DNA of 6,833 nucleotides from a virus (IMGVR_UViG_2802429221_000012:1-6833); one strand, 5' to 3'. Shown: positions 1 to 6,224, numbered from the stretch's first letter. The notes: generated by a model from the letters alone, not told the origin. Translations and numbers: made by a program.

Positions 1-1005
1 TTAATCCCCCGTGGACACTGCGTGGACACTCACGCCACCTTTCAGCGGATTAAGGGCCACCGCATCCTGCAGGTAATCCGGTGCAAAATGTGCATATGCC
101 ATTGTTTGCTGAATGGTTGCGTGACCAAGAATCTTCTGAAGTGCAATAATGTTTCCTCCGTTCATCACAAAATGGCTGGCGAACGTATGCCGCAGCACAT
201 GTGCAGCCTGGCCTTTTGGTAAATCGGGCTTAACTCTTTTCAGCGCCAAGCAGAATTCCCGGTACTTCACCTCAAACAAGCCGCCTGTTTCTCTGGTTTT
301 GATCGCCTCACAAACTGCCTGCGAAATTGGCACTGTTCTCTTTCGGCCATTTTTGGTTTCAAGAAACGTTACACGGTTATGAACTATCTGTTCACCACGA
401 AGCTTACAAGCTTCACTCCAGCGCGCCCCTGTGCTTAAACACAAAAGCGCAACACGCCAGTAGTCGCCCTCCAGTGTATCGAGCAATAGCGCTACTTCCT
501 TCTGGGACAGGAAAGCCATTTCTCGTGGAGATACATAAAGAATAGAAATCCCCCTTACCGGATGCTCTGCATCCCAGAGGCCTATTTTCTTCAGTACGGT
601 AAACATTCCGGATAACCGATTCATGTATCTGTTAGCAGATGACGGTTTCAATCCATCAGCTATCTTTTGAGAACGCCACGCGATAATTTTCAGCTTATCA
701 AGATCCACAGCCTGCATATCAGCGCCAAGCTCATTGATTATGTTGCGCAGTTGTTTTCGATCTTCTTCAGCCTTACGCCTGTGCTGGCCGTGATACATCC
801 ACCACAACTCAAGCAAATCATTTAGCGTTCGACGATCACGGTAGCCCTGTATATATTCCCGCTTTTCAGCGTTCGCCATGATGTAGCGTTCAGTGGCCAC
901 CGCTACCGATTTTTTGTCAAATACCTTACGCACGCGCTTTCCCTTGCGTCCGTTCGGCCTGATGTCCAGCAAATAACGACCATCTTCGAGCTTCTTAATC
1001 GACAT
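1..1005 (-). CDS. int: Phage tyrosine integrase (site-specific recombinase), P2 Int-like, 334 aa
   Basis: Track ORF 1..1020(-) begins at a TTG; the first ATG is at 1005..1003 (MSIKKLEDGRY...), preceded on the coding strand by GGAGGG (complement of 1013-1018) at 7 nt spacing. C-terminal region contains HVLRHTFASH and QTMAYAHFAP, the H-x-x-R and catalytic-Tyr motifs typical of tyrosine recombinases. N-terminus and overall length resemble P2 Int from memory. Stop codon is at window positions 3..1. Confidence 0.9.
   Translation of the reverse strand: MSIKKLEDGRYLLDIRPNGRKGKRVRKVFDKKSVAVATERYIMANAEKREYIQGYRDRRTLNDLLELWWMYHGQHRRKAEEDRKQLRNIINELGADMQAVDLDKLKIIAWRSQKIADGLKPSSANRYMNRLSGMFTVLKKIGLWDAEHPVRGISILYVSPREMAFLSQKEVALLLDTLEGDYWRVALLCLSTGARWSEACKLRGEQIVHNRVTFLETKNGRKRTVPISQAVCEAIKTRETGGLFEVKYREFCLALKRVKPDLPKGQAAHVLRHTFASHFVMNGGNIIALQKILGHATIQQTMAYAHFAPDYLQDAVALNPLKGGVSVHAVSTGD
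11..30. repeat. Tandem direct repeat GTGGACACT-gc-GTGGACACT inside the 3' end of int; candidate integrase arm-type binding sites
   Basis: Seen directly: 9-bp unit at 11-19 and 22-30 with an 11-bp period. From memory, P2-family Int arm sites are short direct repeats containing GTGGACA near the int 3' end; that recollection is unverified. Confidence 0.3.
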
Positions 1006-1101
1006 CGCGAAGCCCTCCAATGAACCGCTCTACAATTTCTCCAGCCTCTTTCCAGCAATAATCAGACCAGACAAAAAGCAGGTCTAACCAGTTTTCTGGC
1101 C

Positions 1102-2924: not shown

Positions 2925-3335
2925 ATGCACGCAAAAGAAGAAGGTATCATCAGAGCACTGAAAGAAATTTCAAAGACAGAAAACGAAGTAGCGAAAAAAG
3001 CCATAGCAAATAATCATATGGACGTCGCAACCCACACACTGATAGTCGCAAGAGTCACGGCAGAAGCAGCCGAAATTATCGCACAACAGGATGCTGAACT
3101 GGCGGTTCTCAGAACACAACCAGTCACCGGACTGGATTTGTCTAACACCGGACGCCTTATTTACACAATTGGCTCGGAGCTACAGCGATACACCATTATC
3201 GCCGGGTTACAGGATAAATACCTGATCACTCCTCACCCCATAAGGGAATCAGAAATTCTGACAAATCTCCGCCTGATAGAGCGCTCTCAAGTCGCATTCA
3301 TTGATGACGCACAGTGCACCGTATTTAACGCATAG
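2925..3335 (+). CDS. Hypothetical protein, 136 aa
   Basis: ATG 2925 with GGAG at 2913-2916 (8-nt spacing), preceded by a 93-bp AT-rich spacer (2832-2924) that could hold an internal promoter. Translation MHAKEEGIIRALKEISKTENE... has no recognisable domain. Confidence 0.65.
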   Translation: MHAKEEGIIRALKEISKTENEVAKKAIANNHMDVATHTLIVARVTAEAAEIIAQQDAELAVLRTQPVTGLDLSNTGRLIYTIGSELQRYTIIAGLQDKYLITPHPIRESEILTNLRLIERSQVAFIDDAQCTVFNA

Positions 3336-3358
3336 GGTTACTGGACAAAGGGGGCGCA

Positions 3359-3562
3359 ATGGCAATTAAGCATTTTCCCGTCGTTCGCTTTACCTCCAGA
3401 GGGCGCGAATACGAGGTCGACGAACGCCTGATTACCACTATCGACAAACATCGTTCGGAAAAGGATGCACACCACATCTACCTCACTGACGGCACTTACT
3501 TCTGCGCCACGAATGTGGTGCGGGTGAACCTTATCCGACAGGTACAGGAGTCACGCAGATGA
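3359..3562 (+). CDS. Hypothetical small protein, 67 aa; first gene of a translationally coupled chain
   Basis: ATG 3359 with AAAGGGGG at 3347-3354. Stop TGA 3560-3562 overlaps the next ATG at 3559 (ATGA). C-terminal tail ...VRVNLIRQVQESRR. Confidence 0.6.
   Translation: MAIKHFPVVRFTSRGREYEVDERLITTIDKHRSEKDAHHIYLTDGTYFCATNVVRVNLIRQVQESRR
3520..3562 (+). repeat. Copy 1 of a duplicated ~43-nt gene-junction segment (C-terminal tail codons, Shine-Dalgarno, ATGA overlap)
   Basis: 3534-3562 TCCGACAGGTACAGGAGTCACGCAGATGA versus 3916-3944 TCCGACGGGTACAGGAGTCACACGGATGA: 26 of 29 identical by manual alignment, with weaker similarity extending about 14 nt upstream. Confidence 0.7.
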
Positions 3563-3825
3563 CCATTCTGGACTATATCGCTACTCATCCGGGTTGTAGC
3601 GGCGGAGAAATCGCCGCAGCACTGAATACTCCAACCACAGCCATTAATGCTGAGTTACGCCGACTTTGGCGCAGCGGCTTAGTCATCAGAACAAACCGCA
3701 GCACAGGTGGTCACGCTCGCAAAACAGGAGGCCGGGCTTCTTACCACGTAAACCCGATGCCGTTCGGGTGTGGCAACCCACTAACCCACATGTTTAACCA
3801 GCTACTGAAGGAAGCCAGAGCATGA
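3559..3825 (+). CDS. Putative winged-helix DNA-binding protein, 88 aa
   Basis: ATG 3559 overlapping the upstream stop, with AGGAG at 3546-3550. N-terminal segment LDYIATHPGCSGGEIAAALNTPTTAINAELRRLWRSGLVIR looks like a winged helix-turn-helix; this is inferred from the pattern, not from a search. Confidence 0.6.
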   Translation: MTILDYIATHPGCSGGEIAAALNTPTTAINAELRRLWRSGLVIRTNRSTGGHARKTGGRASYHVNPMPFGCGNPLTHMFNQLLKEARA

Positions 3826-3944
3826 GCACCATCAACCACCAGGAACCACGCGAACTGGCGACTGCCGTACAAAGAATGTCTACCCAAAAATCACTGCCAT
3901 TCCGTGTGAGCCCTGTCCGACGGGTACAGGAGTCACACGGATGA
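3822..3944 (+). CDS. Small ORF, 40 aa, coupled at both ends (not in supplied ORF track)
   Basis: ATG 3822-3824 overlaps the upstream TGA (3823-3825); stop TGA 3942-3944 overlaps the next ATG at 3941. Hand translation: MSTINHQEPRELATAVQRMSTQKSLPFRVSPVRRVQESHG. Its 3' end repeats the 3' end of the 3359-3562 gene. Confidence 0.4.
   Translation: MSTINHQEPRELATAVQRMSTQKSLPFRVSPVRRVQESHG
3902..3944 (+). repeat. Copy 2 of the duplicated ~43-nt gene-junction segment
   Basis: See copy 1. Both copies end in an ATGA stop/start overlap and encode an (I/V)R(Q/R)VQES tail on the upstream protein. Confidence 0.7.
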
Positions 3945-4159
3945 ACAGAAGGAGAATTACACGCAGACATCGCCGCACGCGCCTGAGCTCCCCGCCAACA
4001 CTAAAGGAACTCATTCAAAGCGAGATCGGTGATTTCTTCGCTGGGTTTGGATCACCTGGCGAACCAGAAACACCAGAAGCGATGCAGCGCGAACTCATGA
4101 TGCGCATCGATAACGTTTTTGACTTTTTCCTGAATAACAAAAGAGAGCAACCGACATGA
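3941..4159 (+). CDS. Hypothetical protein with arginine-rich N-terminus, 72 aa
   Basis: ATG 3941 overlapping the upstream stop. N-terminus MNRRRITRRHRRTR has 8 Arg in the first 14 residues, followed by an acidic C-terminal half (EIGDFF...EPETPEAMQRELMM...). Stop overlaps the next ATG at 4156. Confidence 0.6.
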   Translation: MNRRRITRRHRRTRLSSPPTLKELIQSEIGDFFAGFGSPGEPETPEAMQRELMMRIDNVFDFFLNNKREQPT

Positions 4160-4359
4160 ACGAAAGGACCTGGTTTCGCGCATACATGTGGGCGCTGGTA
4201 TGCGTCCTCTTTTCTCTCATTCTGTATGCAGGACTACTCCCCCGAATGATTTCATCAGACAGCTCCTTCCTGGTATTGCTGGGCATTTTCATTGCCATGC
4301 TGTACCCGGCAGGCGTTGTTCGCCTTTTCAGTAAATACATCAAGGAAATCAAACAATGA
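4156..4359 (+). CDS. Small integral membrane protein, 67 aa, two predicted transmembrane helices; putative partner of the downstream SPFH protein
   Basis: ATG 4156 overlapping the upstream stop. Two hydrophobic stretches (WALVCVLFSLILYAGLL and FLVLLGIFIAMLYPAGVV) separated by a short polar loop. Stop TGA 4357-4359 overlaps the SPFH gene ATG at 4356. Confidence 0.65.
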   Translation: MNERTWFRAYMWALVCVLFSLILYAGLLPRMISSDSSFLVLLGIFIAMLYPAGVVRLFSKYIKEIKQ

Positions 4360-5186
4360 AGAAATTCAAACTCTTTCAGATTATCCCGCTTTTTGCCGCC
4401 ATCCTGCTGGTTGGTTGCGATCGCGTTGAACCAGGTAATGTGGGCATCAAAGTCAACAAACTGGGCGACGATAAAGGCGTCGGTGAAGTGGTTGGCGTTG
4501 GCCGCTACTGGACAGGCTGGAATACCGAGGTTTACATCTTCCCGACCTTCAAACAAATGAAGACCTACGATGAGCCATTCAGCTTTCAGATGAGTGACGG
4601 CACAACCATCGGCTATCACATCGGTGTGGCCTACAAGGTTGATCCATCCAAAGTTACCACAGTGTTTCAGACCTACCGCAAAGGCGTGGATGACATTACC
4701 GACACTGACCTGCGCCAAAAGATCGCCGATGCACTCAACCGACTGGCCAGCAAAATGACCACCGATAAGTTTATCGACGGTGGCAAGTCTGAACTGCTGG
4801 ATTCAGCACTTAAAGACATTCAGGCAGAAATGACACCTATCGGCATTCAGGTAATGAGCCTCTCTTATGTGGGTAAGCCGGAATACCCGCCAACCGTTAT
4901 CGACAGCATTAATGCCAAAGTCACGGCAAACCAGAAAACTCTGCAACGCGAGCAGGAAGTCAAGCAACGCGAAGCAGAAGCCAACATGTTGCGCGCAGAA
5001 GCTGCCGGACAGGCTGATGCCATTCGCACAAAAGCCCAGGCTGAAGCCGACGCCATTCGTTTACGCGGTGAAGCTCTGCGCCAGAATCCCGGCGTTATGG
5101 AGCTGGAAGCAATCAACAAATGGAACGGCACGCTGCCGCAATACATGACCAGCAATACCGCTGTTCCGTTTGTTCCGGTGAAGTAA
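4356..5186 (+). CDS. SPFH/band-7 (stomatin/prohibitin/HflK-C-like) family lipoprotein, 276 aa
   Basis: ATG 4356 with AAGGAA at 4342-4347. N-terminus MKKFKLFQIIPLFAAILLVGCDR is a signal peptide plus lipobox (LVGC); Asp at +2 after the Cys suggests inner-membrane retention in enterobacteria. C-terminal Ala/Glu/Gln/Arg-rich predicted coiled-coil segment ...QREAEANMLRAEAAGQADAIRTKAQAEADAIRLRGEALRQNPGVMELEAINKW... is characteristic of SPFH-domain proteins. Family assignment is from motif recognition only. Confidence 0.75.
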   Translation: MKKFKLFQIIPLFAAILLVGCDRVEPGNVGIKVNKLGDDKGVGEVVGVGRYWTGWNTEVYIFPTFKQMKTYDEPFSFQMSDGTTIGYHIGVAYKVDPSKVTTVFQTYRKGVDDITDTDLRQKIADALNRLASKMTTDKFIDGGKSELLDSALKDIQAEMTPIGIQVMSLSYVGKPEYPPTVIDSINAKVTANQKTLQREQEVKQREAEANMLRAEAAGQADAIRTKAQAEADAIRLRGEALRQNPGVMELEAINKWNGTLPQYMTSNTAVPFVPVK

Positions 5187-5237: not shown

Positions 5238-5338
5238 AGCATGCCGTTCTCACAAAAAAACCGCTTGCCATGCCGCAATCAGTCAGGTTACATTTCCGCT
5301 GTACCTCATAAAACGGGTGCCGGGTTTCGCAGCCTGCT

Positions 5339-5544
5339 GACTAGCAAAGCGCACAACCGCGCCAGCGGTTTTTTTGTGCGTACTGTATTGCCACGTCTTT
5401 TTCGCACACGAATTATGGCGGGGCGTACGGGGCCGACTTCGGTCGGGCCGGGTTCTTTGCTAGCCGGTACTGCGAACCTCGTACGTCTCGCCACCCACAG
5501 TTTCGCAGCTCTGGATGGTGAGTTTTCAAAACTTACTAGCAAAG
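5339..5544. repeat. Three copies of a 9-10 bp motif ACTAGCAAAG (two direct, one inverted) in the non-coding spacer; candidate regulator binding sites
   Basis: ACTAGCAAAG at 5339-5348 and 5535-5544 (flanks CTnACTAGCAAAGnG also match); inverted copy CTTTGCTAGC at 5455-5464. The core GCTAGC is palindromic. The third copy directly abuts the AAGAGG RBS (5542-5547) of the 5555 gene. Confidence 0.4.
5351..5379 (+). terminator. Candidate intrinsic terminator (short GC stem plus T7 run)
   Basis: ACCGC (5356-5360) / loop GCCA / GCGGT (5365-5369) followed immediately by TTTTTTT (5369-5375). Flanking GCACAA (5351-5356) and TTGTGC (5374-5379) are also complementary. The stem is short, so strength is uncertain. 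Confidence 0.4.
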
Positions 5545-5554
5545 AGGCCACACC

Positions 5555-5785
5555 ATGGCAAACCGCAAACAGCACCGCGCTATCGCGGAGCGTCGTCACA
5601 TCCAGACTGAAATCGATCGCAGACTCACCCGCGCTGCACACATCGCCTTTATCATGCAATCCAACACATTGCACAGACTCAACAGCACTATTTCAGCCGA
5701 CTACTGCGCCGCTGTATTCAGCTATCTGGCGGAAGACCTCCTGTCTCTTCAGGATCTCATCCAGCAGCAAAACAAACTCCATTAA
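5555..5785 (+). CDS. Hypothetical phage early protein, 76 aa
   Basis: ATG 5555 with AAGAGG at 5542-5547 (7-nt spacing). Translation MANRKQHRAIAERRHIQTEIDRRLTRAAHIAF...; same strand as, and upstream of, the replication gene. Confidence 0.6.
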   Translation: MANRKQHRAIAERRHIQTEIDRRLTRAAHIAFIMQSNTLHRLNSTISADYCAAVFSYLAEDLLSLQDLIQQQNKLH

Positions 5786-5858
5786 TTCCTGTTCCGGGCC
5801 TTTCCTGCACCTTGCGGCGGGAGGCCTTCGCACATCTGTAGTAAAGAGGATTGCCGCA

Positions 5859-6224
5859 ATGATTCTCGCCAACGACTTTCTTGAATACCTGCTCAACACA
5901 GAGCGTGATCTTGCCGTTCGCGTGCGTGAACGTTATGACATGTACCTGAAATCCCTGCCTGTACCGCAGCTCGCTGACGGAAAATTTGTTATTGATGGTC
6001 GCTACATGATTGACAGCCACGAGGGGAATTACAGGCTTTACCGCATTGAAGCCGGCACCCCGTCCGTTATTGGCATTTACCAGCGCCCATCCTCTGCGAT
6101 CGTCGATGTGATTGCCGACAGCATCCGCATCACACATCGCCATGCCGACACAGAAGACACCGTGCTGGAAATTCAGCGGCTGGCTACAGTCTGCCGCGAC
6201 ACCCTGAATGGCATGACGAAGTAA
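5859..6224 (+). CDS. Hypothetical phage early protein, 121 aa, immediately upstream of replication gene A
   Basis: Track ORF 5241..6224 is an open frame with a low-complexity S/T/R-rich 5' region that overlaps the terminator-like hairpins and the 5555 gene. The plausible start is the in-frame ATG at 5859, with AAGAGG at 5844-5849 (9-nt spacing). Translation MILANDFLEYLLNTERDLAVRVRERYDMYLK...; stop TAA 6222-6224. Confidence 0.6.
   Translation: MILANDFLEYLLNTERDLAVRVRERYDMYLKSLPVPQLADGKFVIDGRYMIDSHEGNYRLYRIEAGTPSVIGIYQRPSSAIVDVIADSIRITHRHADTEDTVLEIQRLATVCRDTLNGMTK

Follow-up and report, generated by a model that had tools for sequence, protein, structure and literature searches.

Mosaic joints in lambdoid phages reportedly arise by illegitimate or short-homology recombination, as in the model of Hendrix and Juhala. 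Such joints have also been described for P2-like phages, and most of those described leave no duplication behind. The locus analyzed here, part of a window of 6,833 nucleotides of viral DNA (IMGVR_UViG_2802429221_000012, one strand), resembles them in having an abrupt break in homology, a crossover within a microhomology of a few bases, a viable hybrid and an operon that can still be read. Its gene layouts, designated (i), (ii) and (iii) below, coexist in the population. Unlike most mosaic joints, however, that of the window lies inside two coding regions rather than at a gene boundary, and it is therefore marked by a visible duplication of 33-42 nt and by a chimeric mini-ORF.

Hairpins that sequester a Shine-Dalgarno (SD) sequence and its AUG until an upstream ribosome opens them are known from the MS2 coat-replicase junction and from rpmI-rplT and atpH-atpA of Escherichia coli. 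The window shares with these systems an AUGA stop/start overlap, with the SD and the initial A of the AUG placed in the 3' arm of a predicted hairpin within the upstream ORF. It differs from them in that this upstream ORF is a non-conserved chimera, and in that the coupling is here a prediction from sequence. Being restricted to one lineage of layout (iii), the stem does not constitute a conserved feature of the operon.

Template-switch (quasi-palindrome) mutations are reported to create or perfect hairpins (PMC8794818). As in such cases, the window holds an imperfect inverted repeat that was nearly perfected by clustered changes complementary to the opposite arm. A difference is that the changes at this locus are spread across the two arms and among several alleles, with an internal mismatch left in place.

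The last group relevant to this locus comprises the phrog_4144 or Ead-Ea22 proteins of P2-like and lambdoid phages, whose full-length homologues of 98-102 aa carry the NCBI name 'ead/Ea22-like family protein'. Two ORFs of the window, of 40 and 72 aa, resemble this family in covering its positions 1-30 and 34-99, respectively. The family gene is not intact in the window, however: its N-terminal piece continues into a foreign tail, and, unlike the full-length proteins, the 72-aa gene is a short natural variant with a different, arginine-rich N-terminus.

The repeated junction and its operon

The window represents the early operon, from Cox to A, of a P88/P2-like E. coli prophage, as judged from a RefSeq locus of 18.9 kb from E. 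coli AJ1 (L001; NZ_OZ547217), a type (iii) lysogen, that is 99.8% identical to it. In L001, this region forms the left end of a P2-like prophage integrated beside pdxB, between int/C/Cox and the replication gene A. The genes are ordered as integrase, C-type repressor, Cox, DUF4761, DUF4754, several small ORFs, a 67-aa gene and a MarR gene, followed by two PGAP pseudogene fragments, a small membrane protein and an SPFH protein, and then by replication endonuclease A, ParM, Ogr, portal and terminase. The closest named phage is Escherichia phage P88 (Xuanwuvirus). The features considered below are the following:

3359-3562, plus strand: 67-aa early-operon gene matching phrog_3459 (function unknown, E=1e-45), whose last ~14 codons, SD and ATGA make up repeat copy 1
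3521-3565, plus strand: repeat copy 1, the native 3' tail of the 67-aa gene, with its SD at 3546-3550 and the ATGA into the MarR gene at 3559-3562
3559-3825, plus strand: 88-aa gene of the MarR family (winged helix), ATGA-coupled at both ends (Pfam MarR_2, E=4.5e-7; phrog_1687)
3822-3944, plus strand: 40-aa chimeric ORF, with codons 1 to ~29 from the N-terminus of the 98/99-aa gene and the last ~11-14 from the duplicated tail of the 67-aa gene
3901-3941, plus strand: predicted strong RNA hairpin, in copy 2 only, with arms at 3901-3916 and 3926-3941 and the loop at 3917-3925
3903-3911, plus strand: crossover zone (microhomology) CGTGTGAGC, placed by pairwise alignments with the related loci L180 and L089
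3903-3947, plus strand: repeat copy 2, the tail of the 67-aa gene, SD and ATGA that arrive with the 72-aa gene, colinear with the 67-tail/72-aa junctions of L003 and L089
3941-4159, plus strand: 72-aa gene (ORF, profile match) whose N-terminus is rich in arginine and whose C-terminal domain is that of phrog_4144
4156-5186, plus strand: downstream ATGA-coupled cargo genes, namely a 67-aa membrane protein (4156-4359) and an SPFH/Band-7 lipoprotein (4356-5186)

The 67-aa gene at the start of this segment is conserved across 260 viral contigs, and the 88-aa gene that follows is named 'MarR family transcriptional regulator' by PGAP. The cargo genes match phrog_1130 and phrog_200, with Pfam Band_7 at E=8e-31; they are present in L004, L180 and L182 and absent in L002 and L003. 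Between 3559 and 4356 there are five consecutive ATGA stop/start overlaps, and no promoter-like or terminator-like site was found at either of the two repeated junctions.

A sequence-only reading of the window had described a repeat of ~43 nt, at 3520-3562 and 3902-3944, and this repeat is indeed the top direct repeat when the whole window is compared with itself. In that comparison it spans 45 nt (3521-3565 against 3903-3947) with 37 of 45 identities (82%) and a spacing of 382 nt, while a hand count over a slightly wider span, 3520-3565 against 3902-3947, gives 37/46. Its core of 29 nt (3534-3562 and 3916-3944) has 26 identities, as had been reported. The match is far above chance level: the best ungapped local self-match scores 21, against 11-15 in 40 dinucleotide shuffles, and the 20-nt core CCGACRGGTACAGGAGTCAC occurs exactly twice where 0.01 occurrences are expected, two occurrences being reached in none of 200 shuffles. 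Nothing resembling the unit is found elsewhere in the 18.9 kb of L001.

The other elements attributed to both copies are likewise visible in the sequence and its translation. The tails, described as (I/V)R(Q/R)VQES, read ...LIRQVQESRR* in copy 1 and ...PVRRVQESHG* in copy 2. AGGAG is located at 3546-3550 and 3928-3932, and the ATGA overlaps at 3559-3562 and 3941-3944. The 40-aa ORF said to be coupled at both ends does start in an ATGA shared with the MarR stop (3822-3825) and end in the ATGA at 3941-3944.

The joint behind the second copy

Three arrangements of this segment occur among relatives. In layout (i), found in the majority, the 67-aa gene is followed by the MarR gene and then by a 98/99-aa Ead/Ea22-like gene (phrog_4144). 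In layout (ii), the 67-aa gene is ATGA-coupled straight to the 72-aa gene, without MarR. Layout (iii) is the two-copy arrangement of the window.

The two sides of copy 2 align with different layouts. To the left, colinearity with the 98-aa gene of L180 (…TCGCGTGAGC) extends from 3822 to 3911 and is then lost; over this part the window also aligns with the 98/99-aa gene of L002 and L004 before diverging. To the right, from ~3904, it is colinear with the 67-aa tail and 72-aa gene of L089 (…CAGGTGAACCTTATCCGAC…CGCAGATGAACAGAAGGAGAATTAC), and the two are near-identical past the ATGA. The microhomology at the joint comprises 9 bases, CGYGTGAGC/CGGGTGAAC, which read CGCGTGAGC in the L180 allele of the 98-aa gene and CGGGTGAAC in the 67-aa tail. 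The left edge of copy 2 lies inside the broken gene of the 99-aa family and not at a gene boundary. This edge is also visible on a larger scale: when positions 3300-4200 were compared by megablast with 5426 complete E. coli genomes, 1317 genomes matched, and in ~790 of them the match stops at ~3901-3904, the start of copy 2.

In relatives, the native upstream neighbor of the 72-aa gene is the 67-aa gene. The 72-aa start of L089 and L095, which matches that of the window over the residues compared, stands directly after a 67-aa tail ending in ...CGCAGATGA, and the same tail end is kept in L179 and L169, the least-derived alleles of type (iii). The 72-aa protein shares only its C-terminal ~45 residues with the 99-aa protein. 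An origin of its N-terminus from the frameshifted middle of the 99-aa gene was considered and rejected, given a DNA identity of ~33-60% depending on the register (hand comparison) and a homologue in a Hafnia prophage (P0020) that has its own N-terminus; the short form is for these reasons treated as a natural variant.

Judged by these alignments, copy 2 is shown to be a recombination scar that carries the native upstream context of the 72-aa gene. Through a single short-homology crossover, a type (i) parent would have contributed its 99-aa gene as far as codon ~29 and a type (ii) parent its 67-aa gene from codon ~54 onward. From the former, the hybrid would retain the 67-aa gene, MarR and the N-terminal part of the 99-aa gene, and from the latter the last ~11-14 codons of the 67-aa gene, the SD, the ATGA and the 72-aa gene. 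One such crossover would therefore leave both the 43-nt direct repeat and the chimeric 40-aa ORF. An event of this kind is ordinary phage mosaicism and belongs to a known class. The locus offers a base-resolved example of a mosaic joint inside coding sequence that is tolerated in a translationally coupled phage operon, since the scar supplies the stop/start overlap by which ribosome flow would be preserved.

Profile matches for the 40-aa ORF agree with this origin. Residues 1-29 match phrog_4144 positions 1-30 (E=2e-7) and the 72-aa ORF matches positions 34-99, while no family matches the 40-aa ORF over its full length, phrog_4144 covering residues 1-29 only. PGAP annotates the corresponding parts of L001 as pseudogene fragments, one equivalent to 3822-3906 ('missing C-terminus') and the other to 4022-4159 ('missing N-terminus'). 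On these matches the 40-aa ORF is a chimera and not a conserved small protein, and it should not be named as a new small protein in annotation.

This ORF is probably relevant only as a translated coupling bridge. It would be translated from the retained start of the 99-aa gene and, because it keeps those start signals and ends in an ATGA, it probably still carries ribosomes from MarR onward. The path of these ribosomes would lead from MarR through the 40-aa ORF to the 72-aa, membrane-protein and SPFH genes along the chain of five ATGA overlaps. Other alleles differ in how this path is built: L179 has an in-frame variant of 42 aa, and frameshifts in L168 and L169 fuse the start of the 40-aa ORF to the 72-aa frame; the fusion products are P0007, of 106 aa, and P0018, of 91 aa, the latter encoded on the contig behind L169. 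From the ATG that overlaps MarR, ribosomes would arrive at the 72-aa start or read through it in each of the eight distinct alleles examined, which fits the bridge role as weak evidence. In the window itself, a hand reading finds the 72-aa frame open back to 3809 and devoid of a start codon over that extent. L182 carries a frameshift within the 72-aa gene; together, the frameshifts of L168, L169 and L182 show some alleles to be decaying, which is compatible with weak selection over the whole segment.

Taken as a whole, the best explanation of the locus is a recombination scar with a chimeric ORF acting as a coupling bridge and a hairpin that buries the SD and AUG of the 72-aa gene, a reading to which a probability of roughly 0.7 is assigned.

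The predicted hairpin at the second junction

The inverted repeat that forms the hairpin of copy 2 has arms of 16 nt that are 88% complementary, with 14 of the 16 pairs of the Watson-Crick type and a loop of 9 nt. Its 3' arm includes the SD AGGAG (3928-3932) and the A of the AUG (3941). The RNA of copy 2 is predicted to fold with a minimum free energy of -30.3 kcal/mol (z=-5.0; 0/200 shuffles as good), and its stem persists when a context of 241 nt is folded. Copy 1 reaches -15.4 kcal/mol (z=-0.83) and the scar of L179 reaches -16.6 kcal/mol (z=-0.77). Both are typical coupling junctions in having an SD and an ATGA, but the conserved signal proposed for them is not supported, nor do the folds of the two copies (z=-0.8 for copy 1, z=-5.0 for copy 2) support a shared RNA signal.

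Among homologous junctions the stem is not conserved, being weak in the copy-1-type junctions, L179 and L168. Across the 38 distinct alleles of the copy-1 type, 4-10 of the 16 in-register positions form Watson-Crick pairs, and the predicted folds lie between -6 and -13 kcal/mol. A conserved hairpin in copy 1 was rejected as a candidate on these pair counts, and also on the folding: a 9-bp stem does exist in some alleles (L115), but the fold is no better than that of shuffled sequences. Within type (iii), the in-register pairs number 7 of 16 in L179, 10 in L168, 11 in L169 and 14 in the window lineage. Given the weak hairpins of L179 and L168, the two-copy layout appears to work without a strong stem. 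An intrinsic terminator at this position was rejected as well, for the stem is followed by UGAACAGAAGGAG and not by a U-tract, and the terminator scan returned nothing at 3901-3950 on the plus strand. Processing of the stem, of ~16-18 bp, by RNase III was considered as well and may occur.

Changes in the hairpin arms were scored against the parental tail, L089, within the part that is securely derived from the tail:

hairpin L13, T to C: U·G becomes C-G
hairpin L15, A to G: A·C becomes G-C
hairpin R12, G to A: U·G becomes U-A
hairpin R14, A to G: C·A becomes C-G
hairpin L10, A to G: neutral

Four of the five changes improve pairing, one is neutral and none weakens it. The chance of this outcome is estimated by hand as ~0.002 if changes are unbiased and as ~0.01-0.07 under a null model restricted to transitions. 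The hairpin varies within the window lineage at 3920, 3922 and 3924, that is, at 3 of 9 positions in the loop and 0 of 32 in the arms. The placement of all three in the loop has a probability of (9/41)^3, or ~0.01, and the 0/32 for the arms is by itself not significant (~1.5 expected). These observations are suggestive of a directional process, which could be either selection for a stem that sequesters the SD or quasi-palindrome correction.

The hairpin may accordingly be non-adaptive. A serious contender, though rated at less than even odds, holds that it is functionless: during replication, intramolecular template switching would have acted on an imperfect inverted repeat released from its former constraint, and the product would persist by chance. 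That template switches create and perfect hairpins is documented (PMC8794818), and the two right-arm changes (CGCAG to CACGG) lie side by side and match the left arm by exact complementarity. The weak hairpins of the sister alleles and the decay in parts of the segment also agree with this explanation. A single template switch cannot account for everything, however, because both arms have changed, the subsets of changes differ by allele (left arm in L169, right arm in L168) and the central 2x2 mismatch was left uncorrected. The confinement of within-lineage variation to the loop is a further point against it.

Under the preferred reading of a scar with a coupling bridge, the tail sequence, once freed from encoding the 67-aa protein, would have gained transitions in the window lineage that turned a weak quasi-palindrome into a hairpin of -30 kcal/mol, burying the SD and AUG of the 72-aa gene. 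At the ATGA of 3941-3944 the upstream stop overlaps the downstream start, and in the predicted fold the SD and A3941 are paired in a stem inside the upstream ORF. A stem of -30 kcal/mol should allow only very inefficient initiation at 3941 by ribosomes arriving independently. Ribosomes on the 40-aa ORF would instead melt the stem, terminate at the UGA within AUGA and re-initiate on the 72-aa gene, with coupling continuing into the membrane-protein and SPFH genes. The 72-aa gene and those after it would then depend on translation of the 40-aa ORF, in a coupling that would be obligate.

A more tentative proposal, and a rather unlikely one, is that the scar fragment became a new regulatory RNA, a de novo translational-coupling switch shaped by selection and/or template switching, of which the alleles L179, then L169 and L168, and finally the window are extant. 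If this were true, the cargo genes for the membrane protein and the SPFH protein would be strictly dependent on a functionless chimeric leader ORF, and the conversion would have taken only a few percent of sequence divergence. Should the hairpin be functional, the extant allele series would trace, step by step, how a coupling hairpin arose from a recombination scar, which would make it a modest yet instructive example of RNA-structure evolution. The notable feature of the locus, of the rank of a footnote, is this lineage-specific turning of a scar into a predicted strong hairpin that sequesters an SD and AUG.

Direction of change and reuse of the junction

The three layouts differ widely in frequency. 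Among the 5426 complete E. coli genomes, layout (i) is found in ~1100, layout (ii) in 182 and layout (iii) in 16, the derived layout (iii) being both rarer and less diverse than its two parental layouts. Scans for the pattern of the type (iii) joint recovered one metagenome contig (L178) and eight viral contigs, so the allele sample of this layout is small. A scan of genome contigs with the pattern ATCCGACNGGNACAGGA gave, among the matches listed, chance hits in unrelated taxa, the pattern being too unspecific. Layout (ii) was found in ~45 viral contigs, with at least three alleles at 80-86% amino-acid identity. It is also old, since in the Hafnia prophage a 66-aa homologue is ATGA-coupled to the 71-aa homologue P0020 (61% identity) through a diverged junction.

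These figures bear on the possibility that layout (iii) is ancestral and that layout (ii) arose from it by deletion between the direct repeats. Repeats separated by 382 nt are a classic deletion substrate, and the direct succession of the 67-aa gene and a window-like 72-aa start in L089 and L095 is what such a deletion would leave. This explanation is nonetheless improbable, as the route from (iii) to (ii) is the less parsimonious one: layout (ii) has ~11 times the frequency, is the more diverse of the two and extends to Hafnia with its diverged junction, copy 2 begins within a gene that more than 1000 genomes carry at full length, and L089 is devoid of the copy-2-specific bases. The 72-aa alleles of type (iii), as compared here, suggest nesting within the diversity of type (ii). 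The direction from (ii) to (iii) is favored by parsimony, though not proven.

Just as little weight is given to the idea that the 43-nt unit is a conserved linker or boundary, a portable site of homologous recombination for repeated module swaps. In its favor, homology between types (i) and (ii) breaks precisely at the ATGA following the 67-aa gene, and two direct copies could mediate the loss of MarR and the 40-aa ORF. The sample of related loci, made up of 160 from viral contigs plus RefSeq E. coli loci, holds the motif once in 152 of 163 loci and twice in 11. Wherever the motif is single, it forms the coding 3' end of the 67-aa gene, and the next gene after that tail is either MarR (in the majority) or the 72-aa gene (~45 loci), with no third partner among the related loci. 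Copy 2 is upstream of the 72-aa gene in every case. With one upstream gene and only two downstream partners, the unit does not qualify as a conserved inter-module linker. The placement of copy 2 inside a disrupted gene, in 16/5426 genomes, and the uniqueness of the unit within the L001 locus also count against such a linker, as does the L089-type junction, which keeps the copy-1 tail to its last base (CGCAGATGA), unlike what would be expected of a crossover in the 20-nt identical core. The rare, derived lineage and the left edge inside a broken gene argue that the duplication is the product of one crossover and not the substrate of repeated shuffling.

The sequence-only reading had offered module shuffling at a conserved linker as one possibility. 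Recombination is borne out, with the 67-aa tail preceding either MarR or the 72-aa gene, while a reusable linker is contradicted by the single occurrence of the motif in 152/163 loci. The search of related prophages that it had called for found different genes after the junction (MarR, 72-aa) but not different genes before it, where the 67-aa gene is always present, apart from the scar copy. For annotation, the repeat is neither a new mobile cassette nor a new regulatory motif.

It is scarcely credible that both copies are one functional cis element (a protein or sRNA site, or a structured coupling signal) selected at two junctions, as in the mRNA binding site earlier suggested for them: the 20-nt block is identical bar one base and an SD lies within both copies, but the conservation of copy 1 is explained by the coding of the 67-aa C-terminus, the SD and the ATGA, the second copy is missing from ~99% of related prophages, and the copies do not qualify as a conserved RNA element because copy 1 has no significant structure (z=-0.8), the strong hairpin being confined to copy 2, because the stem is absent in sister alleles and because Rfam 15 gave no match at either site at E<=1. 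The sole Rfam matches of the window, to isrK, C4 and c4-a1b1, lie further downstream at 5288-5498.

The chain of overlapping small genes

Five ATGA stop/start overlaps follow one another in succession between positions 3559 and 4359 of the window:

3559, 67-aa gene into the MarR gene
3822, MarR gene into the 40-aa ORF
3941, 40-aa ORF into the 72-aa gene
4156, 72-aa gene into the membrane protein gene
4356, membrane protein gene into the SPFH gene

Judged from these overlaps, the interval 3559-4359 would form an uninterrupted run of translationally coupled small genes, unusual in its length. The chain is interrupted in L182, the related locus of E. coli EC21Z-048, since there the 72-aa gene is frameshifted in a CTCCCCGCC run (at about 1690-1720 of L182, the homologous position in the window being about 3990), which provides evidence for decay of parts of the segment in some lysogens.

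In two other related loci, L168 (2501-2821) and L169 (2501-2776), the start of the 40-aa ORF is fused to the 72-aa frame by two independent frameshifts, one close to codon 6 and the other to codon 19, and the fusion products are P0007, with 106 aa (a cluster of 14 members), and P0018, with 91 aa. Going upstream, the 72-aa frame stays open as far as window 3809. These frameshifts may represent either real alleles or assembly errors.

The RNA hairpin containing the Shine-Dalgarno sequence of the 72-aa gene carries a local substitution hotspot in its loop (3917-3925): three of the nine positions (3920, 3922, and 3924) vary among otherwise near-identical alleles sharing the gene layout of the window, and about 4.6% of the sites in the flanks vary among the same alleles. 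The loop could be under weaker constraint, or its single-stranded state could make it more mutable.

Cargo genes and integrases

The chain leads into a two-gene cargo cassette, also found in two related loci:

window 4156-5186, small membrane protein (phrog_1130, 'moron' category) and SPFH/Band-7 lipoprotein
L004 5786-6816, the same cassette
L180 1830-2860, the same cassette

The cassette is missing at the same position in L002 and L003, so that P88-like prophages differ in having it or not at this site. Its role may be in superinfection exclusion or defence.

At the other end lies the integrase:

1-1020, minus strand, integrase gene, whose stop codon is exactly the start of the window

In the 99.8%-identical RefSeq genome (L001, 4386-6706) the prophage directly adjoins pdxB, and the neighbours are dmsA for L002 and btuC for L003. 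These differing neighbours indicate that closely related early operons are combined with different integrases and with different attachment sites.

The antisense RNA region

Rfam matches define three features:

5288-5340, plus strand, c4-a1b1 target, weak match
5301-5375, plus strand, isrK Hfq-binding sRNA (61.7 bits, above the gathering score)
5411-5498, plus strand, C4 antisense RNA (82.8 bits)

The isrK/C4 region is an antisense immunity module of the P1/P7 type within a P2-like early operon. The RNAs (5288-5498) lie closely 5' of genes annotated in relatives as ash-family and derepression proteins. A mechanically called 327-aa 'ORF' (5241-6224) overlaps the isrK and C4 RNA genes and, because it crosses them, its 5' part is probably spurious.

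A simple scan of both strands of the window returned 21 terminator-like sites, compared with 8.2 ± 3.0 in shuffled sequence. The site at 5355-5370, which is followed by TTTTTTTG, corresponds to the 3' end of isrK.
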